Source: Lingula anatina (Eukaryota > Animalia > Brachiopoda). From it: a stretch of DNA of 64,000 bases. Positions 43,101-60,908 of the stretch are shown here, piece after piece. The notes below the pieces were generated by a model, which saw only the letters and a list, made by a program, of their open reading frames with translations, had not been told where the DNA came from and did no database searches. The position numbers and the translations under genes are program-made. Within the stretch, counting starts at the first letter, position 1. Every line of letters begins with the position of its first letter. The DNA is taken from contig CM120641.1 of NCBI GenBank assembly GCA_051362555.1, positions 1,426,001 through 1,490,000 on the forward strand, read 5' to 3'.

Positions 43101-44202
43101 CTTTACCGCTTGCATAGGCTGTACCTACCTGTTTCGCAAAGGAAACTCTGCTATTGAACCTGAATGCTTTCTCAAGAGCCTTCCTGTGCTGGCAATTTTT
43201 CTACCCATCAATACCAATTGATTTCACATATAGCAAATACATTCCATTACAGATGCCATTTAAAGGTCGACTTACTTTTAAATTATACCCCCTCATAAGG
43301 TCAGTGGGGCATTGATAATCAGGCATGGGTTAACCTTTCCGGAGCACCTGTCCTCATCGGGTCAGGCCGGCAATTACTATGAATACTTCCAATGGCATCG
43401 TTGTATGGGTTTTTGAGATATCAAAAAGGGCTTTTTGCGATGAATCTACATGTATAATTTAGTGTTTTTTTAAGTATACGGATATTTGACGCCAAATGAA
43501 ATACAGTTGGCGAATTTACCCCCATCCCCAAAGGTGGAAATAGTATTGAGTACTTAAATATTATAGAAGCCCAAACTAAAATAACTTAAGATCTAGGTAT
43601 CATTTTTGCTTTGTACGGCTTAAGCCGAATAAGATTACTGCATTGTTAATTGCGTTAAATGCAAGCTTTGCACAAGGGTATCGATCTCATTGTTGTTTCT
43701 AAAACATACAATGCGTCTTTGGGGGAATGTCACTCCTTATCTATAAAGATAAAAGAAAAAACCCACGTGCCGTCCTCTTGAAAAGGACGAAAATAATTTA
43801 AACAAGACAAAAGCGAATGTCCCATTTATAATTGAATAGAATCATTTGAAGGCATTTTTGGCAACTGACAATTCGACAAATGCTCGGAGAATTACATGTA
43901 GTTGCTAACTGCACTGTCCAGTGTTACATTTCAGAAATTTTGTGTTTAGTATATCACTTTAAAAACAGGACAGTTAATTTTTTTAGTTCTGTTTCCAAAA
44001 AGTACACTTTACTTTTTTCATTAATCAATTGCCAGCATTAATCGTAACATGCATGAACCAAATAATAGTTTTAATTGAAAATTCTAGCTTAATGAACTAC
44101 CAAATATTTACAGTCACCACAATTGTATGCTTAATAAATAATGTTAATAAAGTAAGTATGTAGATATTGTTAAATTTATAGACATGTCAAATTTAAATAT
44201 CA

Positions 44203-44208
44203 TTTATT
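44203..44208 (-). terminator. Candidate polyadenylation signal of the PKS gene
   Basis: AATAAA on the minus strand about 155 nt after the stop codon. The region is very AT-rich, so this could be chance. Confidence 0.4.
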
Positions 44209-44362
44209 TATAGTAATCCCTAACTTTTAATCAAGAATATTATATATTCTAATGAATATAAATAATGTTTAAGTAAAGTTCACAAAAATGTCGCGTTTTT
44301 CGCTGGATACATTTTTCAGATCCAGTGGTTGAGAAAGTGTCGCTGCATTATCATACAAAGTT

Positions 44363-44484
44363 TTAATGTAAAGTCAATAACACAATTTTCCGCAGCTCAT
44401 TCGCCCAGGTTTCTGCGGCGTGATAGTCCTTGGCTCGGAACACGTACTCGCGATCCTTCCCTTCGATATGTAGACTGGACCAGC
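44363..44484 (-). CDS. PKS terminal coding exon (C-terminal half of PH domain)
   Basis: GWSSLHIEGKDREYVFRAKDYHAAETWANELRKIVLLTLH*. Acceptor cttatttccattccAG. Matches the PH beta6-beta7-helix pattern with the conserved Trp. Confidence 0.85.
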
Positions 44485-47400
44485 CTGGAATGGAAATAAG
44501 ATATAATTCCCACTGATGACCGTTTTTATTTGGTTGTTTTATTAAGCTGATAAAGTTGTAAGATGGCATAGCATGTAGCCCGCTGTATGTTTTCAATCAC
44601 TTTTGAAATCATGTGCTTCGTGTCGAACGTAGCTTTTGCATCGACCTGTGCTTCCCTCTGTTAGAGAAAACACGTACTAAATATGGTCGAAAACATATGG
44701 AATGAAGATGTAAAACTCGATTATTATATGAAAATGATTAGGAAACACTGTTTATAATCTTGCAAGTTGGTGTCATACATACTTACCTTTTGACTGAGAA
44801 AATCCGACTTTTTCAATGAGATTTATTGCAATTGATTTGGATTCTTTAGAAATGCCGGTGTCGTCTGCCTTTTCTGACCACACCAGTTGTGGCCAGCCGC
44901 CATTTTGTGAAGAGATCACTCGGACGAAGCGTTTGTGTCGTATACCTTTAGGATTCACCTTAGTGAAAAACATCCCTGGTGAATAACAAAAGATGAAAAT
45001 GCATAAATTATAAAATTGTAAAAGGACTTGAGTAAAAATTTTTTCTACTACGTTCAACGATTTAGTCAGATAATTAAGCTTATCATTCGACAAAAATGTT
45101 TTTTATTACTCTTACTGAGTAAGAAATCCCTGTTAATGTAAATTATAGGTCATGTTTAAAAAAGACTACTATTTCTTTCAATTATGTCCAATGAAATTTA
45201 ATATAACAATTGCCTTGGCAGGGGCATACTTAAATAAGGAGGCATTGACCGTGACACCTACCTGTACGTAATATTTCTGATATGTCAGGCGGAGCATGTG
45301 TCGCGTTACTATACTGGTGGATACCATTGCCGTTGGATGCGTTAGCTGTAGCCGAACTCTGGGACAGAATCTCCACATTACATAAGGCAATAGTTCTTTG
45401 TGGGTCACTTGTGACCAAAGACAGCAAATATTCAAAGTTCGAAACAATTACTCTGGCTTCTTTTTCACTAAGGAGGTCGCTAGAGTAGTCCAGAGCTAGG
45501 TCTATCTTTTCCCTTTTCTTATCATAAAGAATCCGAAGCCTCGTCTCGTGCGTAAGAATAAGTGTGCGCGCATCTTTCATATAAGCTTGCTTTTCCCGGC
45601 TCTCACTCTTGTCAGAGTACTTCTCAAACAAATCCTCCTTGAAGGACGACGCTTCGAGGATGATTTCATGGCGAGTCAAGTAAGGGCGGTCTTCTGGCGC
45701 AACCAAATTTCTGATATTTTCAAATGGGTACAGGCTGTTCTGGATGCACTGTAGGATGCTTTTGGCATTTCTACATATGTAGCTGGCGATGGTTTCATGC
45801 GCATCATCGGGGAAGGAAGCGGGCAATGGAATGAAATTGACGCAGTCGGTGACAGTGCGCAAGAGGCCGGGGACGTGCATGCGCAGATCAACTGGGTTTG
45901 AGACAACGACGGTATCTGCACTGCATAACTTGTGAAGAACCAATTGATGCACACTAGCTAAAACCTGAAAAACGGTGACTTTCTCTCTTTTGCAAAATTC
46001 GCTGAGTTTTTTCACAATTTCTACTGACAAAGGCCGTTCAAGCGTAGAATACTCGCCTGAGATCTTTTCGAGCGGAGTTGATTCCTTTGATAACCGTACG
46101 TCTGACATTTTATCTGGAAGAATGCCGGACCAGAATTCCTGGAGCTCCTTCATTTTGGTCGTTGTCAATACCTTCCCTATTTCCTCTGCAATATTCGGAA
46201 CATCTGCATTCTTGTAAGCTTTCATGGATATACCGCTAGTTTTGGCTGCTACAACAGACATAAGATCCTGAAATATGAGGGGCACTGAAGTCATATCGAG
46301 GGCGCTGTGGTGAAAAACAAACCTCAAATAGCTTCTCGGTTCGGTAAGAACGAAGGCCACTCGCCATGGAGCCTCTCTGATGAGATCGAATGGCGAGCGA
46401 GTGAATGAATTCAGCGAGGGTGTCACTTTAGTTTCAGACCCCTCTAGTGTGAGGAAATCCACAGGAGCATCCTCAGGCAGGAAAGATATTTTTACCTCGT
46501 CTATTCCATCGCCCGTACCAGGAGTCCTGGGAACAAAGACTGCTCTTAGCATTGGGTTGCGGCGTGCAACTTCATTCAAAACTTCTTGCCAGAACCCGGA
46601 TGTTCCAGGGTTTTCTGGGAGTACCAGTGTCATGACCACGTGGGCGCTGAGATCGGATGGATTTGCCCGGTTTCTTTTGTACGAGGAGTACTGCATGAAT
46701 GATGGTGTCAGCAGAGGCCCTGTGGGTGAGGAATTGGCAGACACGGAAATTGGTAAATGAGCAAGTGCTTCTTTCGTTCCCTGTGGCTTGGGCTTGGTTT
46801 CCTGTTTAGCAAAATCGCCAGGGAGTCTCTCGTCTATGAAACTAGCAAGTGCGGCCGCGGTGACATCCTCACTTAGTAACACCACAACTGGTATTGTGAC
46901 CTTCAGCTCCTGGTTCACCCTGTTGATCAGAGACATGGCAATCATGGAATCAATCCCCATGTCTGAGATCGAGGCATCGGCGTGGACGGCTAAAACGTCC
47001 ATGCCAAACAGAGAGGCAACAACACTGCGGGAGTATTCGACCAGTTTTAGGTAGCGCTGCTCCGCACTCAGCGACTTCAGTTCTCCTAACGTCACGGTGC
47101 ACTGACCCTGGTCTGAGTGTGCCTTGTTTTCAGTGGAAGCCGCGCCGCTGTGCAGCTGCATTATGGTGGTGTACCGAGCTCGAATTGGGGAGTTTTCTGC
47201 TCTCTGTAACTCCTGCACCATCTTATTCCAGTCGAAATTGCCATAGAGAACTTGAGTCTCGTTCTTCAATAGCGCGTGGTGGAGACACTTCACAATCTCA
47301 GGTACCGTAAGAGAAGCGTGTCCCATTACCTTAAGAATTCTCTCTGCAGCCTCGTCGCCTTTCAGAAGACCAATCTCTAGAGCGCCCCAGTTTATAACTT

Positions 47401-50400
47401 GCGCTACCATATTCTGCTGTCGTCTGTAGAAAGCAAGGGCGTCCATAAACGAGTTGCCGGCTCCGTAATTTGTTTGACCTCCATTTCCCATCAGTGACGT
47501 CACGGAAGAATGCATGACAAAATAGTCGAGACTGTACTCTCTCGAAATAAGGTGAAGATTCCATGTGCCAATGATCTTGGGGTTAGTTGCTTTCTCAAAC
47601 TTTTCTTGATCAAGATTCAACAAGATGCCATTTTCTAGAACAGCCGCCCCGTGGAATATACCTTTAAGGGGAACGCCGGGCAACGTCTGATCCAATGATC
47701 CGAAAGCTTTCTTCAAAGAGGAGAAATCCATGACGTCAGCCTGAACGCAAATGAACCGCACGCGGTGCTCGTTTTCCAGACGCTTTATGCTGGCAATTTG
47801 TTCACTGTTCGGGGCCCGACGTGACATAGACACGATATAACCTGCTCCGTTCGCTGCCACATATTTGCTGATTTCCCACCCAAGGCCAGTTAGACCACCG
47901 ATAATGAGGTAGCTTGCGTCCCGTCTGAATAAATCATTAGGGCCGGCATACACAACTCTGGACATTGCTTTCTTGTGGAAACGCACAATATCCACAACGT
48001 CATCAGGGCTGTGGTCGTGTTGGTTTTCAATTCTTGCCAGCATGGTGCTGCCGAAATCTATGCGCTTGTGTAGATCTACAGCTTCAAGCTTCATTTCATT
48101 CACCGTGATATTTAGGTTAAGCTGGGGCTTTGATTTTAGTTTCTTGAACCAGCGTCGGAGTGGCGGGATGGTAGCCCGAAGGCTCGGTGGGTTGAACGTG
48201 TCACGGAGGAGACAGGTGTGTATCTGGGTATTCGGTAGGTGACCTGCAAGTGCATTAATGATAGGACCAGAGACCCATTCCTCCACCACAATCAGGGACT
48301 GGGGATTCTGCCAGGAACCAGCCAGACATTTCACATCCAGTAATCTCAGCTCTTCCAGAAGGACAAGGGTTCTATGTTCCAGTTTCTCGCGGTTTTGAAG
48401 ATCTTTTCTGGGGATGATCTCAGCCGCCAGGTTCTTGTAGCCTGCGAATGTTTTAAACAGCTTGCTCAAAGCAGAAGTTTCATGTGTGTGGACAATACCA
48501 ATCGTCCCAAGTTTTGCAGAAACCAAATCGAGAACTTTCCTGACTAAGATAAGCTGAGCAAGCGATGTCTTGGCAAATTGCGGAAGATCTTTAGTGCGGA
48601 ACACGCAGTCCTCTGGAACCTTAAGTATGGACGCTGCTTTTGTGGGATAACATGTCAGCACCGTCTCTCCTACTCGGAAACTGGATTTGGGGCCAGTTTT
48701 TAAAACCTGTCCCTCCACGCTTAAAGTGAGGACATCATGCCCCGGTGCCTCAGCAGTTGGCCAGTAGGAGTAACTTGACTTTAAGTCGGAAACGGTTACT
48801 GGGAACAGCAACGGCTGATGGAGATATACAAGATTGGTCGATACCAACAGGTGCCCTTTCCCTGCGTTGAGATCACTGGAGTCACTTTGATATTGCAGGT
48901 GGACATCTTTTAGTTTCCTACTGTGGCAAGACACGAGCTTCACTTTACTATCTTCCTCGGATATATTTTCCCTGTATTGAATGTAATTGAGGTTTTCAGT
49001 CACTGGCATGATTTCATTGAGGTAGAAAGATCCTGCTGCGACCACAGTTTCGGGAAACTGCTTGACAAATGCTTCTATGTTCTTCAAGGCATTGGATACC
49101 GCTACCAGACTCTCTCTGCCTTCTTGCACGTCGACAAGACTGACTGCGTCATACGTATACTCTCTGAGGAGACTCCGCACCATCCCCCACATCTGAGATC
49201 CGACTGGACTCAACGTGGCATTGGATGATTGGCTTACACACTGGCAATTTCTGGTTAGAACCACAATGGGCACTTTGCAACCGGCTCCGTGAAGCAATTT
49301 GATGAGCTGCCTAAATCCAGAACATGCTATTTGACAAGCGTCGTTGACTTCTTCAGCTGTTGGGAAGATTCCTACGTCCGCTATTCCCCAGGCAAAGACC
49401 ACTCCACGTAATCGTGCTAACTCACTGAATGTATTACTTAGGAGATCTTGCAGTCCGTTTTCATCGCGCACCTTGCCTTTGAAGGCACTACGAGGAATGC
49501 GACATATTGGACCTTCTAGTCTCTCTGCAATATGTTCTGCGACTTTGCAGGGATCGGTAAGTACTAACCAAGAGTCACCCCGTAGTCCCAGATCCGCGTC
49601 ACCAGATGGCGCTACTGCAGAAGCCGCAGGCATCTTATTCCACTGAAGCTGATAAACAAAAGCTTCCTCAACCCGCTTGCTCTCTGAAATGAACTTTGTG
49701 ACGTAGTTATGGGTCTCCACTACCACCTCTCCATCTTGCGTCAACAACATGGCGTTGAAGTGAGCTATCTCGTGTGGTTTATCATGCATCAGTCTGCAGT
49801 AAGCGTACAGCTTCCTCTGAGGCGGGCGCCTGACGGTCAAACTACCAATACCCACGGGAATAGACGGGTCCGTCGCCTCGTTACCTACGTAAAATATTCC
49901 TGGGTTCTGAAAAAGACCATCGAGAATGGCGGGATGGATGGTGGTACTGTACATCTGTTGGCACACAACGTCTGGGAGCTCAATCGAGGAGAGACACTCG
50001 ACCTTGTTTCTAGATGCTCCAGTGATGACTTTCATACTTGGCCCGTACATGAACCCCAGCTTCTCCAGTGCCCCGTATATGACCTCTTCCGTAAGGTGTT
50101 CCGTGCACCTGCTCTTTATTTCCTCTATATCCACTGCCTTGACGCTGTGGATGTCCTCCGTGTAAATGACGCTACCTCGGGCGTGAACTCTTTTGTCTGA
50201 TTTGATGGTGAAATCATTTGAGCAGTGCTCCTGACCTAGGTCGTCTGCAGAGCCGAAATCAACTTCCAGTTTAGCACCCTTCCCGGGAGACAAGATCACA
50301 GGACGAACAAAGTCAACGTGAACCAAGAAGTTTTGCACGGGTTTTTTGGTCGAGGCAACTGCAGCCGTCAACGCAATTTCTGCATAGAAGGCGCCCGGTG

Positions 50401-53400
50401 CGACCACCTTTCCTCCCATATAATGGTCATATATGAACGGTGTCAAATTATTGTCAATGACTGCGGCATATTTAATGCCGGCACTTGGCAACCTCTTTAC
50501 AAAGGGATGGGCAAAATGGGAATCACTGTCAATTCCAGCGCGTTTGAGTTTAGAGGACTCTGGTTCAAAATAGTTCCAAATCCTTTTGAATTGATACTTT
50601 GGAGCATCAACTATAGCAACGTTTTTCATGGAAACGACGTTTTTCCACAGTGGATTGAGTCCCAATGTGTAGATTTTTGCCACTGCTTCACTTAGGCAGC
50701 TCAGCTCGCTACCTTTTTTCATAGACGGTATCACGGGTACGTCGCTTCTGTCTCGCATGTGAGCGCGCAGCACTGGGTGTGGTCCTATTTCAATAACGAT
50801 GTTGTCATGATCGTCCGTAATAGCAGCGTCTACAGCTTTTTTGAACTGAACAGGCTGACGCACGTTTCTTCCCCAGTACTCGGCTGTGACAAAATCTTGG
50901 TCTGACGCCAACTCTCCAGTCACTGTGGAGAATATAGGCACGTCTGGCGTTTTGCCTTTTAATTCCGATAAAGCAGCTTCTACTTTAGACTTGATATCTT
51001 GCATATGGTGACTGTGGTAGGCGCACTCAGTTGGCAGGTCTTGGACATACACACCATTAAAACGGATCGTGTCCCGGAGGGTCACTTTCAGATCTTCTAT
51101 GGCGTCTGCGTCCCCTGAGACAACGCACGATGTCGGGCTGTTAAATACTGCGATGTTGAGTCTACCCGAGTATTTTTCTGTAAGGACTTTCTCCAACCAG
51201 ACCGTTTTGTAATTCATCACAATACACATCCTTCCCCCTTTGGCTTCTGACAGAAACTTGGTGCGATAATAGATGGTTGTAACAGCATCTGGGAGGGAGA
51301 GAGCACCGGCCACGTGGGCGGCTGCCACCTCTCCCACAGACTGCCCAAGAACTGAAGACGGCGTTATACCCCAATGACGCCACAGCGCTGCTAGGGCCAC
51401 CTGGCAAGTGAAAATGGCAAGCGGGGCCACGTCAGCAGACGACAAGTCTTGATTCTCTTTAAATATCTCTAGTATTGACCAGTCGGTCAGGGGCTGCAGT
51501 AGATTGTCAATTTCCTGGACTTTATCTCTGAAGACGCCTTCTTCCCTTATCAAACCCCTACACATGCCTTGCCACTCCATTCCCATGCCACAGAAGACAA
51601 AAATGGCGTTTTTGGGCGCCAGACCCACTACTGGCTGTTCTGGCAAATTGGATACATCCGATTCCAGTTTGCGAATGCATTCCTCGATAGATGTCGCTGT
51701 GGTTGCAAGTCGGTAATTGTAATGAGTTCTCCTACAAGTTGATGTGCGCGCAATATCTCTCAAACTGTATTCCTTATTTGAAACCTTTTCCATGAGGTTT
51801 TTAGTAATCTGTTCAAGGGACCACTGATTTTGAGCTGAAATTGCAATGATTTCTGGGGATTTTTCAAATGCCTCTGTGGCCTCATCTGTCATATCAATGG
51901 ACACATTCTCACTGCCCAAATCCTGACATGTCTCATGACAATTTCTCTCTTGTGTGGCGTTTTCGGTCATCTCACTGTCAGTTTCTTCTTGTTCAATACT
52001 CATAACTGGTTTTTGGATGGCTTCTCTACTAAACTGCATGACCACGGCGTGTGCATTGGTTCCTCCAAAACTAAATGAGTTGACACAGGCAAGACGGGGC
52101 TTTCCCTCGGGCGGTGTCCAGTTCATAACCTCTGTAGGCACTCGCAGTCTGAGCTCGGGAAAATTAATCTTCGGGTTGGCCGGCCGGCCCTTGAAGTGCA
52201 AGGAAGGGACGATCTTCTCGTGTTTCATCATGAGGAGCACTTTAATGAGACCCGCTACACCTGCCGCCGATTCAAGATGGCCGATGTTGGTTTTCACTGA
52301 GCCTATATAACACTCGGATGCTCCCCTCGCCTTTCTGTCCAGAAAGCTGCCAATGGCGTTGCACTCCACGGGGTCGCCAGCTTGGGTCCCTGTCCCTATT
52401 TACGGGACAAGAAATAGCAATGATGATGTTATATGCAAAGCATGTGTATAAAACTCCATTAAATATCAGTTAACATTAATCATGTTCATATAACATTTAA
52501 ACACAAAACCAGTAATTATAATTGTGCTCATATTGCAGTAATACTTTGTACATCATTTCTTCTATTTATTATTACATACATATTATATTCTATTAAGGCT
52601 TGTTAATTTATGAAATTCGTGTAAAATATATGTATATATTTACCATGAGCCTCCACATACTGGATATCATCTGAGTTGACGTGGTACTTTGCAAACACTT
52701 CCTTGAGCAGTGCAGCTTGTTGAGAGCCTGACGGAGCCGTGATAGGGTGAGCCGTGCGGCCATCTTGGTTGACGCCTGTACCAATGATGGCCCATATTTT
52801 GTCTCCATCTTTTAACGCCTAGCGAATTCGACATGAAACATTATCAGATTAAAATAACATCATCAAAATGGGAAGTCGGACAATAGTTTTTCCTCCGTGT
52901 GAGGGTTCCTTGGATGTTTAAAGTAAATAAACCCTATGCAAAACAAAAACTCTGTTTGCATTTCTCCAAAAGATGACTTATGATCATCAGTTTGTTTTAC
53001 GTATATACAGCATTGGTCAAAAAGGTTGTCCCACCCCCATTTCCATGTACTTTTATTTACAAATGATCACCTCGCAGCTGTGAACTGTTAGAAATAGTGC
53101 TTTTTATCACGGATACCGTGTCTAACATGATTAATGGTTAAAAAAATACAAAATAGTGGTGAAAATATACATATTTTATACCATTTAGTAACATTTATAA
53201 GAGGTACCCCCTCAAATCGACTGTTTCACTGTTACTTCTACAGATGTAAAGAAATGTCTATAAAATTGAAAAGGTGCCATCAAATGTCACCAAATTCACA
53301 CACAATTAGCATTAGGGTGTGCTTATTAAAGATCACGTGCCTAACAGCGTGTGCCTCTACCGCGTACTGCAATTATCTCCTGTAGACGGCGCGACAAGCC

Positions 53401-56400
53401 TTCAACACGGGTAACAATTCTGTTATGTGGGATATTGTCCCATTCATCCTAAAGAGCGTGGCGGAATTGGTCAAGATTATTTAGGAATTGGTTCTCCTCT
53501 GCAATGCACATTCTAATTTATGCCACAGGTGCTCAGTAGGATTAATATCAGGACTCAAAGACGGTTGTCCCATCCTCAGAGCCCTGTGTTTCTGCAACAA
53601 ATCGTTTGCCAGACGAGAGCTGTGAGCAAGTGCGTCGTCACAATGAAACCAGTAGTATCCCTGAAGTCACCTCTTGCAAATGGAGTGAGATTTCTGTTGA
53701 GAATGTTACATCAAAATGCCCCTGTTACGTTTTGTTCCAAAAGGAACAATGTACTAATACTATGGGCTTGGGATGTTCTCCAAATGCGGATTGATCTAAC
53801 ACCTCAGGCGATATTATCCTGCACACACCCTTCCAAGAGGCATTTTTTAACATGTCTATGGACCCTCTTTGACCATCGATGGGATACAAGAAATAATTTG
53901 ATTCTGCATCAAAATCAACTTCCTTCCAGTGATGGATGGTCAGGTTCAGGTGCCTGTGGGATCACTGAACGTAGCATTCTCAGCTGATATCTCATTCCAT
54001 CTTCAAGAACTGACTTTGGGGCTAACTTCAGGCTTTATCATGACTGCACACTTGCTCACACCTCTCGCCTGGCAACTGTTTGTTGAAGAAACATAATGGT
54101 CTAAGGATGGAACCACCATCTTTGAGCCCTGATATCAAACTTACTAATCAACTGTGACATGTATTGGAGTGTGCAATGCAAAGGAGAACCAACCCCATAA
54201 AAACGTGGATCAACTCCCCCAACTTGTTTAAGAAGAATGGGACAATATCCCACATAACAGAATTGTAACCCGTGTTGAAGGCTTGTCGCGCCGTCTACAG
54301 GAAATAATTGCAGTACGCGGTAGCCGCACACGCTGTTAGGCATGTGATCTTTAATGAGCACACCCTAATGCTAATTGTGTGTGAATCTGGTGACATTTGA
54401 TGGCGTCTTTTTAATTTTATAGTCATTTCTTTACATCTTTAGAAGTCATAGTGAAACAGTCGATTTGAGGGGGTACCCCTTATAAAATTTACTAAATGGT
54501 ATAAAATATGTATATTTTCACCACTATTTTGTATTTTTTAAACCATTAATCATGTTAGACACGGTATACGTAATAAAAAAACACTATTTCTAACAATTAA
54601 CAGCTGTTAGGTGATCATTTGTAAATAAAAGTACATGGAAATGGGGGTGGGACAACCGTTTTGACCAATGCTGTAAATGTGCCAGAACATTTCGTGTTTT
54701 ATTAGCTTTCAATTAGACACATCCTACATGTAAAGGTACACAAATGTACACAGTGCAGCATTTTACCGATATGAAAAATTTGTTAGACAGATGAATACCA
54801 CTATTACCTCCAATATTAGCGCAAAACAAATCATTCAGATTAAAGTTGCTATGTTACTACAAATATGTATCTCTCTTTGACTAAATATAAAACATGTATA
54901 GCAGTAGTCACTCACGTCTTTAAGCCTTTTCAGCACCACTATGCCACACCCCTCACCACGTGCGTATCCATCCGCCGCGGATGAGAAGGCTTGGGACTGT
55001 CCTGTTGGCGACACCATCCGGGCTTTACTGAGAGGCACGTGCATCGTGGGCATCATGATAGCGTTCACACCGCCACAGAGCGCCATGTTGCACTCACCTG
55101 GGAGATTTGACAATAACAAATTGTTGAAATATGTCGTTTAAGACAATAGATCGCAAATATGGATATTTCGTTTGCATATCCGTTACATATTGTACACACA
55201 TGAGTCTCCTCTAGACAAAAACATACGAGATGATTCAAAGATGTTCTTTAAATATGATCAACACCTAAAAAAATAATCGTATTGGCAGTTGACGGACGTG
55301 TGGGTTTCATTGATTATCCAGAAAAAATTTAAGTTGAAATTACCAAAAATATGTTGAAACTGTCTACCATTCATTTTGTCAACTTTTTCTGTTTGTTACA
55401 CAATACAATTACAATCAAAATTTCATTTTTATTACAAAGCCAACGGAACGAGGACCTCAATATTTAACTTCTGTTAGCTAACCATTTTGAGGGGGGGGGG
55501 GGAGGGGCGTAGGGGGTCCGAAAAATTATAAAAGCAACAAACCATTCTTCAGTGCCTGGCAGCCAAGATGCGTGGCCACCATGGCCGACGAGCACGCGGT
55601 ATCCACGGACATACAGGGACCGAGAAGGTTGAACACGTAGGACACCCTGGCGGCAGTAATGCTGTTTGAGGCTCCGGTTAGGCTGTAGTTGTTCATGGAG
55701 GACACGTCCGTCTCAAACATGTCCGCAAAGTCGTTATTCATGACGCCTGTAAAGGTAGGAATGTAATAGCCAGCTGAAACTTTTTTATGTTTTTCAATGA
55801 AGCGTGTGTTTGATTTCCCTTAATCGTTCCTTTTCATGTAAAGATAACTTTTAGCTTAAAGTATATATCATTACATATAGGACTTTTTCAAGATAGGTAA
55901 TAAACAAGCTTAGCGGATTTTTAAGTTTACAGAATGCAAGGAGAGATACAACAAACTAGCTTTCTATAACATTTTTATGACGCCACGTTCTATTTTTTCT
56001 TTCACTTCGAACCAATAGTCAGCTCAAGCTCATGCACTTGATAATGATTTATTGTATTGCTGGTTCATTCGGCTTTCAAATGCGGTATACCCACGTACAA
56101 AGCCGTATCATTCTGATTCGATGTAGAAGTGTATATAAAGCGTGACAACCAGATACAACGATGATATTAATGTATCTATGAGGGTCATTACAGTAGAACA
56201 AATAAACACACGAGACCTCATCAACTGCTACATGATTTAACTGTTGCGCGATAAGATGTGTACGTCATCATATAGTAGGGCTACACTATCCATTGTAGAT
56301 AACGGATTTCCGAGATACACGTAAAATTATAAGATTATGTACTTATGCCAGTCCCTAACCACCGAGCGAAATTACACAGGCATACACCCTACTTTAGTAT

Positions 56401-58290
56401 TTGTTTAAAAAATGATCTAGAATAATGAAAAAACAATTGAATCAACTGGAAGTTGTCATCCACTGCTTACCAACATACACCCCGGTCCGGCTTCCCTGTA
56501 TATCCGGGGTCGGTATCCCAGCGTTCTCCAGCGCCATGTAACAACAGTCCAGTACAAACCGCTGCTGGGGGTCCATCCTCGCCGCCTCCAGGTCGTTGAC
56601 CCCAAACAGCCGGTTATCCCACTCTATGTGACTCCTGAGGGAATAGTGGATTTTGATGTGAAATTACGCTTTAATACGGTAGATTTGTTAGGTCGATGAT
56701 ACAGCGATAAACGTTATTTGACGTGCAAAAAAAGCAGACTTCTGTGAACAACACGTTTGGGGAGACCGGGGCTAGTTGGACCCCGGGGTAAGTTGCCCCC
56801 CTCCCACCCATCAAGTCTTTTTAATATTGTTACTTTAAGACGCTAAATTGTTTCATTTGGACTCACTGCCGACGCTTTCTTAGCACTATTGGATACGGTC
56901 ATTTTACAAAATGATGTGGTCAATTCTTTTATCCCATAGTTACTTTGTCATAAATTGATGGGGGTCCAACTTACTCCGGGGTCCAACTAGCCCGTCTCCC
57001 CTATTAAAAGCACATCTAACTTCTATCGTTCATTATTTCTATTTAGTGATTGTTTTTTTCTTACCCACCACGTCTGTTCTGGGTATCATTTCCCCATTTC
57101 ACTTTGCTTTTTGGTCTTATATACATATATTTCTAGCAAAAGTATCCTACATGTGTTCTCTGCCTTTCAACAGCACTAGCTTATTGTTTGATCTAAATGG
57201 TGCATCTTCAACCTGCAGTCCTGCCTTTCATACAATTGATTACATTTTATATAATACATCATGAAAGGTGAGAAAATTTAGATTTACTACAAACATTAGC
57301 TATTAACACAGTTATTTTTATTATCTTTATTTATTTATTTATTTGCGAAAACATTTTATGTGTGATTTCAAAGCACTCTGCAGTAAGGACGATGTGATAT
57401 GAAATGGAACTTTGCGCACTACACCAAAAGTGAAAGCTTATGTTTACTACGACCGCTCGCTGTATCAGGTTAAATGAAACGCGAGATGTATCAGGTTTTG
57501 TATCTAATCTAATAATTTGTGTTCCTTATTGTGCGCCAAACGAGCATTTGATCCGTTTTAGCTTCGATGGCCATAGTCAAATATGTATTATGAATTTGAC
57601 AAAAGGAAGAAAGAAATGAAGGAGTTAGATTTTGTGGTGCTTTCAAATAACAGCTACTGATGAGAATGAGCGATGTTACAAATTTCCAAATGAAAAAAAC
57701 TTATCGATAAGGAAAGTGAAAGTGAAAATAAAAGTGGACTGCGAGGCAGGGAGAGGAGGTTGGCGCACACATTCTTCAAATATCGTACTTGTTTCAAACT
57801 TTAACCGTGTACAAGTTTTCTATAAGTTAAGTTTGTGCCCTAACAAAACGATATTCTTAAAAGCACTCTTTTTAAAAACGCTTTGCTTTCCTTGAACAAA
57901 GAAAATAGTACCCATTGACGTGTTCATGGTGTATTTCTACGTCTTTTTACTACAACTTATAACTACGACACTTGCTCATAAATGTATTAGAATTTTTAAC
58001 GAGACTGCGTAGCTGATCTTCCTAAAACTGCTTCTTGCATCAAGTGAGAATGGGGAAGAAGATCAAAATTTCACCTACCCTTTAACAAAGCCAGCCCGAG
58101 TGACGTAGGTTTTGCCAGGGGCATCTGGGTCAGATGAGAAGAAAGCGTCATTATTCCATCTTTCTTTTGGTATATCAATCACGTGGTTCTCTCCATTTTC
58201 AAGAACTTTCCAGAATTCATCAATGTCGTCTGCTCCGGGAAAGCGGCAGCCGACGCCGACGATGGCGATAGCGTCATCGCCTAACATCAT
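44363..58290 (-). CDS. Animal-type iterative type I polyketide synthase with C-terminal NRPS condensation and PH domains (KS-AT-DH-psiKR-ER0-KR-ACP-C-PH), about 2793 aa; join of 58290-58079, 56634-56471, 55746-55543, 55097-54916, 52818-52644, 52395-45262, 44975-44787, 44484-44363
   Basis: Manual splicing. All 7 introns within the CDS are GT-AG with matching phases (2,1,1,0,1,1,1). The summed length of 8382 nt is divisible by 3 and ends in TAA. Motifs: IAIVGVGCRFPG, MDPQQR, DTACSS, EAHGTGT, KTNIGHLESAAG (KS); GQSVG and AYHS (AT); HYMGGKVVAP and HPAILD (DH); GGLTGLG and NYGAGN (KR); GIDSM (ACP); HHSALD (C); C-terminal PH pattern. Confidence 0.93.
44787..44975 (-). CDS. PKS coding exon 7 (N-terminal half of PH domain)
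   Basis: GMFFTKVNPKGIRHKRFVRVISSQNGGWPQLVWSEKADDTGISKESKSIAINLIEKVGFSQSK. Acceptor tttgttattcaccAG, donor G|GTAAGT, phase 1-1. Confidence 0.85.
45262..52395 (-). CDS. PKS coding exon 6, giant 7134-nt exon: KS C-terminus, AT (~50650-51610), DH (~49700-50510), psiKR, dead ER, KR (~47250-47925), ACP (~46825-47050), C domain (~45385-46715)
   Basis: Corresponds to the 2379-aa track ORF, extended to acceptor AG|GG ACA GGG ACC (completing HGTGT). Donor ACA G|GTAGGT at 45261. Domain boundaries are approximate. Confidence 0.95.
52644..52818 (-). CDS. PKS coding exon 5 (KS, first catalytic His)
   Basis: ALKDGDKIWAIIGTGVNQDGRTAHPITAPSGSQQAALLKEVFAKYHVNSDDIQYVEAH, in a different frame from the track ORF at 52608-52808. 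Donor G|GTAAAT. Confidence 0.92.
53008..54673. mobile_element. Foldback non-autonomous Tc1 (DD34E) derivative in a PKS intron
   Basis: TA|CAGCATTGGTCAAAA...TTTTGACCAATGCTG|TA termini with ~700-bp inverted arms. The left arm on the minus strand encodes HCDDALAH...SPDINPTEHLW with 34 residues between D and E. The right arm encodes EEWDNIPHNRIVTRVEGLSRRLQEIIAVRG, a Tc1-like C-terminus. Confidence 0.88.
54916..55097 (-). CDS. PKS coding exon 4 (KS)
   Basis: ECNMALCGGVN...ADGYARGEGCGIVVLKRLKD. Acceptor tctcccAG, donor GAC|GTGAGT. Confidence 0.92.
55543..55746 (-). CDS. PKS coding exon 3 (KS active-site Cys)
   Basis: VMNNDFAD...GPCMSVDTACSSAMVATHLGCQALKN. Acceptor cctttacAG, donor G|GTTTGT. Confidence 0.92.
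56471..56634 (-). CDS. PKS coding exon 2 (KS; absent from the ORF track)
   Basis: Translates as SHIEWDNRLFGVNDLEAARMDPQQRFVLDCCYMALENAGIPTPDIQGSRTGVYV. Acceptor ttccctcAG, donor G|GTAAGC. Confidence 0.92.
56759..57001. mobile_element. MITE in a PKS intron
   Basis: TIRs GGGGAGACCGGGGCTAGTTGGACCCCGGGGTAAGTTG and CAACTTACTCCGGGGTCCAACTAGCCCGTCTCCCC. Confidence 0.8.
58079..58290 (-). CDS. PKS coding exon 1 (KS N-terminus)
   Basis: MMLGDDAIAIVGVGCRFPGADDIDEFWKVLENGENHV...AGFVK. Acceptor catccAG just upstream of the ATG. Donor GG|GTAGGT at 58078. Confidence 0.92.
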
Positions 58291-58578: not shown

Positions 58579-59909
58579 ACATCGAGGTATCTATCAGCAT
58601 GACAAGCTAATTGGAATCCCTATCTTTATCATTCTATCCATGAAATTGATTAATATGATTACATCTCATTGATCATAACAATAATATTCAAAGCATTGTC
58701 CTGACTTGCAATTTAATTTGCAGTGTCATGGCTGACTTTCAGCATTACGGCACTCACACTGCGCGACTGAAAGGCATCGGCAAAATCGGACACTGCTAAA
58801 ATATCATCGTCACCATTATGTAGCCGTTTATTGGATTAAACGCAATCCATCATTGGAAATTACGACTACCGTGTGCGTCGGGATTACTAGTACGACCATT
58901 GACACTAGTTCAAACACCAGTAGATATCATATCTTTATCGGAATACCGTATGCCAATCATGATGACCATGGTTTACGTTTCTCATATTTTGTTCATTGTT
59001 TTTGATGAACAGTCTATGGGGGTCTTTGATCGCGTCTGGCGTTCAATAGATTGCTGATGGATTATCATTTTAAAAGAGTGGCTCTAAATTGACAACTGGC
59101 GTACAACAATAGCTTTCTGTGTCCAAAAAGAAGTAAAAAGCATAAATCATAAAAAGTAAGTACAGAAAAAGCAAAGAAATTGAGGCTACGATACCAGTCG
59201 TCATTTATCCTTAAAGGGGTAATACCTCTTCGTTTCGGCCAAAAAATGAATTTTCCTGGAGCAAACAATAATTTCCCCATACTTACCAATGGTTAATAAA
59301 TCCATTTTTACATTAAAAGTTAGTCCCTGTTTTTTTTTTCTAAAAAGAGATTTTAACAGAGTATAGCCATCAATGGAGGTCACATGGTCTAAAGACAAGC
59401 TCAGATATCAGAATAATGGCTATAACTGCCGTTTTTGTGGTAAAACAGAATATATTATATTTCTATGAGTTATTCACATTGTTTTTATTGTGAAATATAG
59501 ATCTCATACGAAGAGTTATTATCCCTTTAATTGACAGTCACTGGGCACCTGTGGTTGAAAGATGTAAAGTTATATGTACATAGATCCACAATGGTGGGTA
59601 CAAATTCAGGAACGATACAATGGCATAAGAAAAAAAAAGCGAGTTATCCCTTCACTCGGTATCTTTCAATGAAAGAAAATTTTAAAAAAAAGCTTTTACA
59701 GGAAGACGTCGTTCCCTCTACCACACACACATACACTGGAGCATCCCATGATATACATAAAAAGATCCCAACAGCAATTCAATTTTAATTCAAAGGGCAC
59801 GAGAGACGTTATATTCTTCAAAATTATGGAACTGGTTTTAGTTTTTTATTACGCAAATTATTTATGTCCTAAGCACCATCATTTTAATTTCAAAATATGA
59901 ATACACACG

Positions 59910-60821
59910 CTATAATCCAATCGCGAGAAAAATATCAAATTCAACACCTAGATTCGTGTGTTCTATTAAAGGCACCCAGTTGTTAAACCTCAGAGCAATC
60001 ACACTTTTCAAGAACTTTCTGCTTGCTTCTGACAACGAGTCATCGGACATCAAAGTTCTGTCAATTTTGGCACAAGCCACGTCGATCGTGTCTATGAACT
60101 CGTCTTGCTCCAGCTTTCCCCCTACACTGATGAGCATACTGGCAACAGTCTTGATAAGATAGTCCATTGGGTCGTCTAGCAGGCACTCTATGACTTCCAT
60201 TATACTGTCTGCTAACACCAGTCCCTTCGCATACATCCGGGCAATGAAGATACCCAAATGTTTAATTTTCGTCGTCAATGAAGCTATTTGTTCAGCTGTT
60301 CTTTCCATTGAGGTCTCCAATCGGATCTGAGACGACCGGGAGTGTGAAGAGTAATCCTTCGTCGACAAACGGGCATACGAATTCAGTTTGCTCTGGTATA
60401 AGTCCAACGTAGAGTGAAAGTCCTGTTCGATTTTGTTTACAATGGCGTGGGTAATTCGCAGCTGAGCCATCTTTCCTCCTGAAGTGGGATTTGTGAATAC
60501 TCGCATCTCAGTCTGGTAAATACTGGCTATAAGTTGTACAACTGGGCCTCCGATTAAGACATCTGATTTGACATTTTGTAATATCAAATATCCCAGAACG
60601 TCTATTTCTGTACGAGTGCACACTTTCTCGAAAACAACCTTAGTGAATTGTTTTGTGATTTCCTTCATTGCGCTCTTATTTGGCTTGAAAGGGTCTATCT
60701 TTTTCGAAACAAGATCTAGAATCTTCTGGATATCCTTTCCAAGGGGCGAATTCTTTGCCATCGCCTCCACAAAGCTGTCTTGGTCAACTCCAAGGCGACT
60801 GTCAGACTCTGAGAAATTCAT
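59910..60821 (-). CDS. Intronless 303-aa MIF4G-domain protein, divergent eIF4G middle-domain-like
   Basis: The C-terminal half (HLGIFIARMYAKGLVLADSIMEVIECLL...IKTVASMLISVGGKLE...SRKFLKSVIALRFNNWVP) follows the eIF4G MIF4G pattern as I recall it (GNIKFIGELFKLKML...LECLCRLLTTIGKDLD...RIRFMLQDVLDLR..NWVP). AIVNKIEQDF resembles LLLNRCQKEF. The 912-nt ORF is uninterrupted in AT-rich DNA. Confidence 0.8.
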   Translation of the reverse strand: MNFSESDSRLGVDQDSFVEAMAKNSPLGKDIQKILDLVSKKIDPFKPNKSAMKEITKQFTKVVFEKVCTRTEIDVLGYLILQNVKSDVLIGGPVVQLIASIYQTEMRVFTNPTSGGKMAQLRITHAIVNKIEQDFHSTLDLYQSKLNSYARLSTKDYSSHSRSSQIRLETSMERTAEQIASLTTKIKHLGIFIARMYAKGLVLADSIMEVIECLLDDPMDYLIKTVASMLISVGGKLEQDEFIDTIDVACAKIDRTLMSDDSLSEASRKFLKSVIALRFNNWVPLIEHTNLGVEFDIFLAIGL

Positions 60822-60908
60822 TTTCCGTGTAAAAAAATATTAGACATTTAACCTTATTATGATGAAAGATTATTTAACTCACGACAAAGTCCGCGTTACA
60901 CAGCTAGC

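Follow-up and report, generated by a model that had tools for sequence, protein, structure and literature searches.

Two small exons are predicted to add a pleckstrin homology tail to an animal polyketide synthase of Lingula anatina

A 64,000-nucleotide stretch of the brachiopod Lingula anatina (GenBank assembly GCA_051362555.1, contig CM120641.1, positions 1,426,001 to 1,490,000 of the forward strand) carries on its minus strand a gene for an animal iterative polyketide synthase (PKS). We call this whole stretch the window and count positions from its first letter. The last large exon of the gene ends with a condensation (C) domain and a linker. We argue that two small exons beyond it very probably splice onto the PKS in this organism, and that together they encode a pleckstrin homology (PH) domain at the end of the enzyme. 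A PH fold for this tail is well supported by searches with its homologs. Synthases of bivalves, a hemichordate and lancelets share the tail. The overall reading we favor, with some reserve, is that the two exons give the PKS a PH tail common to these groups that would tether the enzyme to a membrane through its basic residues.

The evidence for splicing comes first. A preliminary description, made from the letters of this DNA, had placed junctions at 45262>44975 and 44787>44484. Both hold up: the donors GTAGGT and GTAAGT and both acceptors are found, the introns are GT-AG, and the frame stays open through both exons to a TAA at 44365-44363. Both introns are in phase 1, as had been claimed, with lengths of 286 and 302 nt. 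The low-complexity linker described ahead of the domain is also present. GC content is 42% and 49% in exons 7 and 8 and 29% and 35% in their introns. The features of this end of the gene are as follows.

45275..45385, minus strand: Ser/Ala/Asn-rich linker from the C domain to the PH domain, not conserved in homologs (sequence)
44976..45261, minus strand: intron 6, 286 nt, phase 1, located at the N-terminal edge of the PH domain (splice sites, gene model)
44787..44975, minus strand: exon 7, 189 nt, predicted PH strands beta1-beta5 (tail model, fold of a homolog)
44961-44959 and 44931-44929, minus strand: K2696 and R2706, which lie in exon 7 together with H2704
44485..44786, minus strand: intron 7, 302 nt, phase 1, inside the domain at the predicted beta5-beta6 turn
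44363..44484, minus strand: exon 8, 122 nt, predicted beta6, beta7 and C-terminal helix, and the stop codon
44407-44405, minus strand: Trp2780 in the predicted C-terminal helix, exon 8
44203..44208, minus strand: candidate polyadenylation signal AATAAA (sequence)

A hidden Markov model (HMM) of 14 homologous tails, with no window rows in it, gives the spliced model 47.8 bits and the separate open reading frames (ORFs) of the exons 24.8 and 21.5. None of 1,000 shuffles exceeds 9.3 bits, and among about 2,195 window ORFs the next best has 7.0. It must be noted that 12 of the 14 tails were recovered with a profile containing the window exons. A stricter HMM, built from the 2 tails found without those exons, ranks the last-exon ORF first and the spliced model second among 3,197 sequences, with a narrow margin (13.9 and 12.7 bits vs 9.8). 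Enumeration of the splice sites gave 49,845 donor/acceptor combinations, 9,271 of them open, and the model proposed earlier ranks first at 54.8 bits. All of the top 14 models have the second junction in common; the first donor is less fixed, and the runner-up scores 53.8 bits. Chance ORFs are ruled out as an explanation by the shuffles, the HMM scores and this ranking. The domain is cryptic because each small exon alone gives only PH-clan Pfam matches below cut-off (E 0.17 and 0.13, the latter being the last exon to Pfam PH). In the Atlas the best PH cluster for the last exon scores 0.85, which is a lead only.

The next question is where else this tail occurs. A search with the whole PKS gave 710 matches at E<=1e-100, and the C-termini of 19 homologs among the best 120 of the 710 were compared. 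A similar tail ends three of the 19: Glandiceps, Ruditapes and Branchiostoma belcheri. When the spliced tail was set against the last 200 aa of 13 homologs, Glandiceps scored z 8.6, B. belcheri 6.2 and Ruditapes 4.8, and these were equalled by 0, 0 and 3 of 2,000 shuffles; the shuffle tests gave no tail match in the other 10 of the 13. A tail profile run against 1.84 billion representatives gave 61 matches, 59 of them new. Twenty-three of the new ones were examined, the other 36 being long, multi-stretch and mostly partial matches. PKS domains and the tail occur together in 10 of the 23: Sinanodonta, Mytilus (3), Argopecten, Pecten, Mya (3) and Branchiostoma floridae, the last with the architecture KS-AT-DH-KR-ACP-TE-C-tail, where TE is a thioesterase. 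Three are short models with a whole tail (Lingula, Mytilus and Owenia), and UniRef names the Mytilus and Owenia models 'PH domain-containing protein'. The rest are single-exon genomic ORFs (7 of 23) and ordinary PH proteins (3 of 23). The tails closest to that of the window are from Lingula (30% identity) and Owenia (28%). A search with tail profile A2 that was aimed at longer proteins returned 3 matches only.

The bivalve sequences also bear on how the tail is joined to the enzyme. Logan contigs of Ruditapes (8,466 nt) and Mytilus (8,240 nt) hold ORFs of 2,715 and 2,689 aa that run from KS to tail. Coding sequence fills 8,148 and 8,070 nt of them. The contigs barely exceed their coding sequence, so they are intronless and presumably spliced transcripts. 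Genomic ORFs of the same clusters lose the match at the tail start with a read-through Gly, which implies a phase-1 intron there in the bivalve genes. This break is within one codon of the intron 6 site in the window. The number of codons from the break to the conserved Lys is 4 in Ruditapes and Mya, 5 in the window and 6 in Mytilus, so the positions are near each other but differ. In relatives, six short genomic ORFs cease to align approximately at the Gly that matches the window's second junction. A two-exon layout of the tail is likely common to the window gene and the bivalves.

Two further observations concern the tail in annotated proteins. Three PKSs with a C domain (PKS-C), P0124 (Argopecten), P0144 and P0315, end after the linker at or just past a Gly that resembles a read-through splice donor, and annotation may have missed their PH exons. 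In Branchiostoma (P0131/P0321) a KS-AT-DH-KR-ACP-A architecture has the tail after its adenylation (A) domain, so the tail can occur without a C domain.

The identification of the tail as a PH domain, claimed in the preliminary description, is borne out by profile and fold searches on members of the family, and the predicted fold is carried over to the window by homology. Against the PDB, all 7 matches of profile A1 at E<=1 are PH proteins, as are all 29 of profile A2, the best being GRK2 at E 5e-4. HHalign of A2 against a cercozoan protein with four PH domains gives 93.8% over 92 columns, and the K..G..H-K-R stretch is among those aligned. AlphaFold predicts seven strands and a C-terminal helix both for the Lingula tail (pLDDT 95.4, pTM 0.86) and for the tail of the Glandiceps PKS (pLDDT 85.3, pTM 0.74). 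A Foldseek search of the last ~110 aa had been suggested. Run on the homologous tails, and not on the window's spliced domain itself, it finds the PH sandwich, with PH domains first at probability 1.0 and TM up to 0.76-0.78. Among the Foldseek-ranked candidates, which the VIA-align structural comparison covered, the ARAP3 PH domain aligns with Z 14.2 and a root mean square deviation of 2.0 over 95 residues and that of DAPP1 with Z 13.6. A Trp in the C-terminal helix is a conserved feature of PH domains. The helical Trp described earlier is Trp2780 in the window, and 11 of 15 aligned tails have a helix Trp. That PLC-delta/Num1 PH domains are the nearest kin is not evident from these comparisons: GRK2, ARAP3, DAPP1 and PLC-gamma PH domains are best, tied within about 1-2 Z, while Pfam Mcp5_PH matches 2 of 19 tail rows weakly and PLC-delta PH is at Foldseek rank 46.

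The enzyme that would carry this tail is intact. The model has 8 exons and 2,793 aa, with no internal stop. Its 2,389-codon ORF upstream of the small exons matches the KS C-part, AT, DH, KR, ACP and C domains in Pfam. The exons upstream of this giant exon were placed by tblastn with animal PKS homologs, which added five KS exons up to 58290. The catalytic motifs are all present: KS Cys-His-His, AT Ser, DH His/Asp, KR Tyr, ACP Ser and C-domain HHxxxD. The order KS-AT-DH-KR-ACP-C and these residues make the gene an animal iterative type I PKS with a C domain. No thioesterase is among its 13 Pfam matches. The C domain matches Pfam Condensation at E 4e-34, and its 15 sequence matches in the PDB are all nonribosomal peptide synthetase (NRPS) proteins (best E 1e-11). 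With the C domain alone as query, the best 120 of 162 matches are NRPS-type multi-module proteins at 18-27% identity, and none of these 120 is an animal-named protein. The parts of the gene are these.

58079..58290, minus strand: exon 1, start codon and KS N-terminus (tblastn with animal PKS homologs, open gene model)
56471..56634, minus strand: exon 2, KS (tblastn, gene model)
55543..55746, minus strand: exon 3, KS with the catalytic Cys motif DTACSS (tblastn, gene model)
54916..55097, minus strand: exon 4, KS (tblastn, gene model)
52644..52818, minus strand: exon 5, KS with the first catalytic His (tblastn, gene model)
45262..52395, minus strand: giant exon 6, 7.1 kb, with a phase-1 intron on either side, the KS C-part at its start and the linker and first PH-domain residues at its end (Pfam, intron phases)
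51604-50705, minus strand: AT in exon 6 (Pfam, converted from ORF residues)
50485-49685, minus strand: DH in exon 6 (Pfam, converted from ORF residues)
47917-47378, minus strand: KR in exon 6 (Pfam, converted from ORF residues)
47029-46835, minus strand: ACP in exon 6 (Pfam, converted from ORF residues)
46588-45386, minus strand: condensation domain in exon 6 (Pfam, converted from ORF residues)
46295..46312, minus strand: active-site motif HHxxxD of the C domain, intact (sequence)

HHxxxD is also intact in the Lingula protein P0121 and B. floridae P0292. It is altered in 12 of 12 mollusc C-domain rows, 6 of which retain the second His. Release chemistry may differ between lineages, judging from this variation. 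The giant exon is in phase 1 at both ends, so in-frame skipping is possible. In the RefSeq model of isoform X2 from Mya (P0283, 413 aa), the N-terminal half of the KS runs straight into the PH exon.

Phosphoinositide-binding PH domains have a lipid-binding motif of the form K-x(n)-[K/R]-x-R. The preliminary description saw this basic beta1-beta2 signature in the window, and it stands in part. The domain has a net charge of +6; K2696 stands where beta1 ends, and R2706 follows ten residues later in beta2. However, the stretch reads K-x4-G-x2-H-K-R, with a His and not a Lys or Arg two before the Arg. In PH domains, inositol phosphates bind mainly at the beta1/beta2 loop (PMC4735990). Membrane tethering is taken as the most likely reading because of the basic pocket and the position of this site. 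For binding of anionic lipid by the beta1-beta2 pocket we see the case as evenly balanced.

Judging from PKS and NRPS systems in general, the enzyme would iteratively build a partly reduced acyl chain on its own ACP. Since no thioesterase was matched, the terminal C domain is proposed as the release domain, and with HHxxxD intact it would pass the chain to an acceptor, an amine or an alcohol. The PH domain, on its flexible linker, would keep the release end at the membrane, and the lipophilic product would be inserted or exported at that membrane.

Several points weigh against the reading as a whole and are gathered here. The domains that were folded belong to two homologs (30% and 19% identity) and are not the window's own, and the better-modelled Lingula tail is a 213-aa model whose membership in a PKS is not established. 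No Foldseek match reaches E 0.001 (the best is about 2e-3), and no tail reaches the Pfam PH cut-off (best E 7.6e-5, 6 of 19 rows). The beta2 Arg is in only 4 of 15 tails, all 10 bivalve rows have Val there, and the net charge of the tails spans -1 to +10. The HH motif of the C domain is degenerate in most molluscan homologs. In the tree discussed below the tail is in 0 of 6 gastropod rows, 0 of 4 vertebrate rows and neither Lingula PKS model. The RNA does not help either. Eight of 9 RNA runs with the same label were examined over the gene. Four have no reads on 43600-52900, a depth that is no test of the junctions. The other four mostly cover repeats and show no joint at 45262/44975 or 44787/44484, so junction-spanning reads are absent from all 8 runs, at a coverage far too low for a test. 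Exon 6 is covered in one run of the 8, X9, at 0.2-1.7x over 46484-52764. This is an oligo-dT library, and it has no reads at 44200-46483. Such a 3' gap has a chance of about 0.1 given about 11 fragments (an estimate from depth), which is weak and slightly unfavorable.

The most serious rival also takes the PH domain to be a genuine part of the enzyme, but makes it a module that docks to a protein (a partner enzyme, a transporter, a G protein or the C domain) and not a lipid anchor. The invariant residues of the family are the Gly and His of G-x-x-H (15 of 15 tails), with the beta3 Trp in 14 of 15, whereas the lipid-binding Arg is rarely kept. The top sequence match, the PH domain of GRK2, is present in G-beta-gamma complexes according to PDB titles, and FERM, PTB and other PH-like protein-binding folds are within 2-3 Z of the top. 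However, the pocket Lys and Arg are both kept in the window, Lingula, Owenia and lancelet copies, so the basic pocket is likely the older state. A net positive charge is seen in 14 of the 15 tails. The best structural matches also bind inositol phosphates, though fold likeness shows no function. We consider docking a possible but doubtful account of the tail.

If the PKS of this organism stopped at 45230, where read-through past the linker meets a stop codon, the two exons would be vestigial or part of a separate or minor transcript. This agrees with the lack of any RNA read on either exon in the 8 runs, including the run with some PKS reads, with the tail-less PKS-C models in gastropods, Lingula and Argopecten, and with the annotation of the closest tails (Lingula and Owenia) as separate short proteins. 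Yet the RNA coverage is far too low for a test, and the exons are open, have consensus splice sites, keep the family-invariant residues and give the best of 9,271 models. In the intronless bivalve contigs, moreover, the PKS runs on into the tail, and the phase-1 break between them sits at almost the corresponding position. We think this scenario unlikely.

It is also worth considering when the tail was acquired. A FastTree tree was made from 926 KS-AT-KR columns of 25 hand-picked rows, rooted on 3 bacterial PKSs and with no fatty acid synthase (FAS) row. The window PKS is sister to a Lingula PKS (support 0.98) beside the molluscs, and the hemichordate and lancelet PKSs fall outside; the vertebrate position has a support of 0.29. 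The tree roughly matches animal phylogeny. The tail is in 6 of 7 bivalve rows and 3 of 3 invertebrate deuterostome rows. We argue that there was probably one ancient fusion in bilaterian PKS-C genes, before the split of protostomes and deuterostomes, followed by losses. In the simplest reading we infer that the tail-less PKS-C genes reflect later losses or missed exons.

The preliminary description had instead taken the phase-1 introns as a sign that the domain was added by exon shuffling, and this is not supported as argued. The intron phases of the gene are 2,1,1,0,1,1,1. Phase 1 is uninformative here because 5 of the 7 introns have it (including 3 of the 5 inside the KS) and one of them cuts inside the domain. 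That one, intron 7, falls in the predicted beta5-beta6 turn, and module shuffling would require no intron there. A class 1-1 module is not what the gene presents: one intron is at a boundary, the domain being terminal, one is internal, and there is no excess over the gene's background. Since bivalves, a hemichordate and lancelets all have the tail, shuffling, if it took place, must have been an ancient event that the phase cannot reveal; such an early event is conceivable. Shuffling specific to one lineage was rejected because of the tail in both protostome and deuterostome PKSs, the gene-wide phase 1 and the tree. It is thus very improbable that phase-1 exon shuffling brought a PH module to the PKS of this lineage: the phase-1 intron at the N-terminal border of the domain speaks for it, but the tail's distribution, a KS-AT-KR tree that roughly follows animal phylogeny, a phase-1 share of 5 in 7 introns against a background of 33% in human genes (PMC3632108), a second intron that splits the domain and the lack of a prominent donor family all speak against it. 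The fusion looks ancient, and not like a local shuffling event.

The enzymes themselves are already published. Lin et al. 2024 (PMC10764717) cover mollusc PKSs that have a C domain as well as ones that lack it, and report N-terminal introns. Their clade with a C domain is like the window gene in its order KS-AT-DH-KR-ACP-C, its few N-terminal introns and its one very large exon, and the window PKS is 27-38% identical to bivalve, gastropod and brachiopod members of that clade. The window gene differs in adding a C-terminal PH domain on two exons and in keeping the HHxxxD that most of the mollusc homologs compared here lack. Neither 'pleckstrin' nor 'PH domain' occurs in the main text and 17 of the 18 supplementary files of PMC10764717. 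OlPKS and the lancelet and acorn-worm PKSs of Hojo et al. 2015 (PMC4604110) have the same KS-AT-DH-KR-ACP core. However, OlPKS stops at the ACP, while the window PKS continues to a C and a PH domain. A table in that paper, which ties fish and urchin PKSs to mineralisation, gives C-containing architectures in Branchiostoma and Saccoglossus, among them XP_002610053 (KS-AT-DH-KR-ACP-TE-C). By the tail HMM this protein (P0311) carries the PH tail at 84.5 bits, and the tail is not in the table. The word 'pleckstrin' was not found in the accessible text of PMC10531068 or PMC12833800. Among the best-matching papers that pair polyketide synthase with pleckstrin or PH domain, none is about an animal PKS tail by its title and the start of its abstract, subscription journals being outside the scope. 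As far as this literature goes, the PH tail on PKS-C enzymes appears to be new.

The tail is also set apart from the PH domains it resembles. Its likeness to the canonical ones (ARAP3, DAPP1/TAPP1, GRK2 and the N-terminal one of PLC-gamma) is in the predicted seven-strand sandwich and helix, with Z 12-14 and a root mean square deviation of ~2 A. The tails are 6-20% identical to them, fall below Pfam cut-offs and have a family-specific G-x-x-H in the beta1-beta2 loop. Canonical PH domains sit on signalling proteins, whereas this one sits on a biosynthetic megaenzyme. The C domain is comparable with NRPS condensation domains in its HHxxxD and its sequence match, but it is terminal, with no adenylation domain after it, and is followed by the linker and the PH domain.

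Three other elements lie in the window. Intron 4 of the PKS contains a 1.68-kb element (53003-54678) with inverted arms of ~600-650 nt that are 88-93% complementary. It has a stop-riddled frame, and RNA reads from other copies pile up there. We take the frame to resemble the end of a Tc1/mariner transposase. About 1.6 kb upstream of the PKS start is a single 309-aa ORF (59913-60839, minus strand) with a weak MIF4G match (E 0.0046, below cut-off) and a few RNA reads in 2 of 4 runs. A short high-copy repeat with internal inverted arms lies at ~59210-59530, where RNA depth in X9 rises up to ~1,700x as a bin mean; it is likely an element like a miniature inverted-repeat transposable element (MITE).

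Among the products of animal PKSs are pigments, defensive compounds and a factor required for the mineralisation of otoliths and spicules (PMC4604110). The cellular site at which animal PKSs act, and the way in which members without a thioesterase release their product, are largely open, as PMC10764717 states for most of the mollusc animal FAS-like PKSs. A membrane- or partner-binding module found across several phyla would be a small, expressible handle on where these enzymes are located. The PH tail escapes Pfam and is missing from gene models that end with the giant exon; heterologous expression from such truncated models would omit the domain. A bolder proposal, which we put forward as speculative and rather improbable, is that bilaterians inherited a membrane-docked synthase of polyketide lipids. 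Its PH domain would read a phosphoinositide of the secretory membranes, its C domain would hand the chain to a membrane acceptor, and skipping of the giant exon would yield a regulatory KS-PH mini-protein of the kind annotated in Mya. If this were true, the tail would be a location code for animal PKS products that are linked to biomineralisation and defence.
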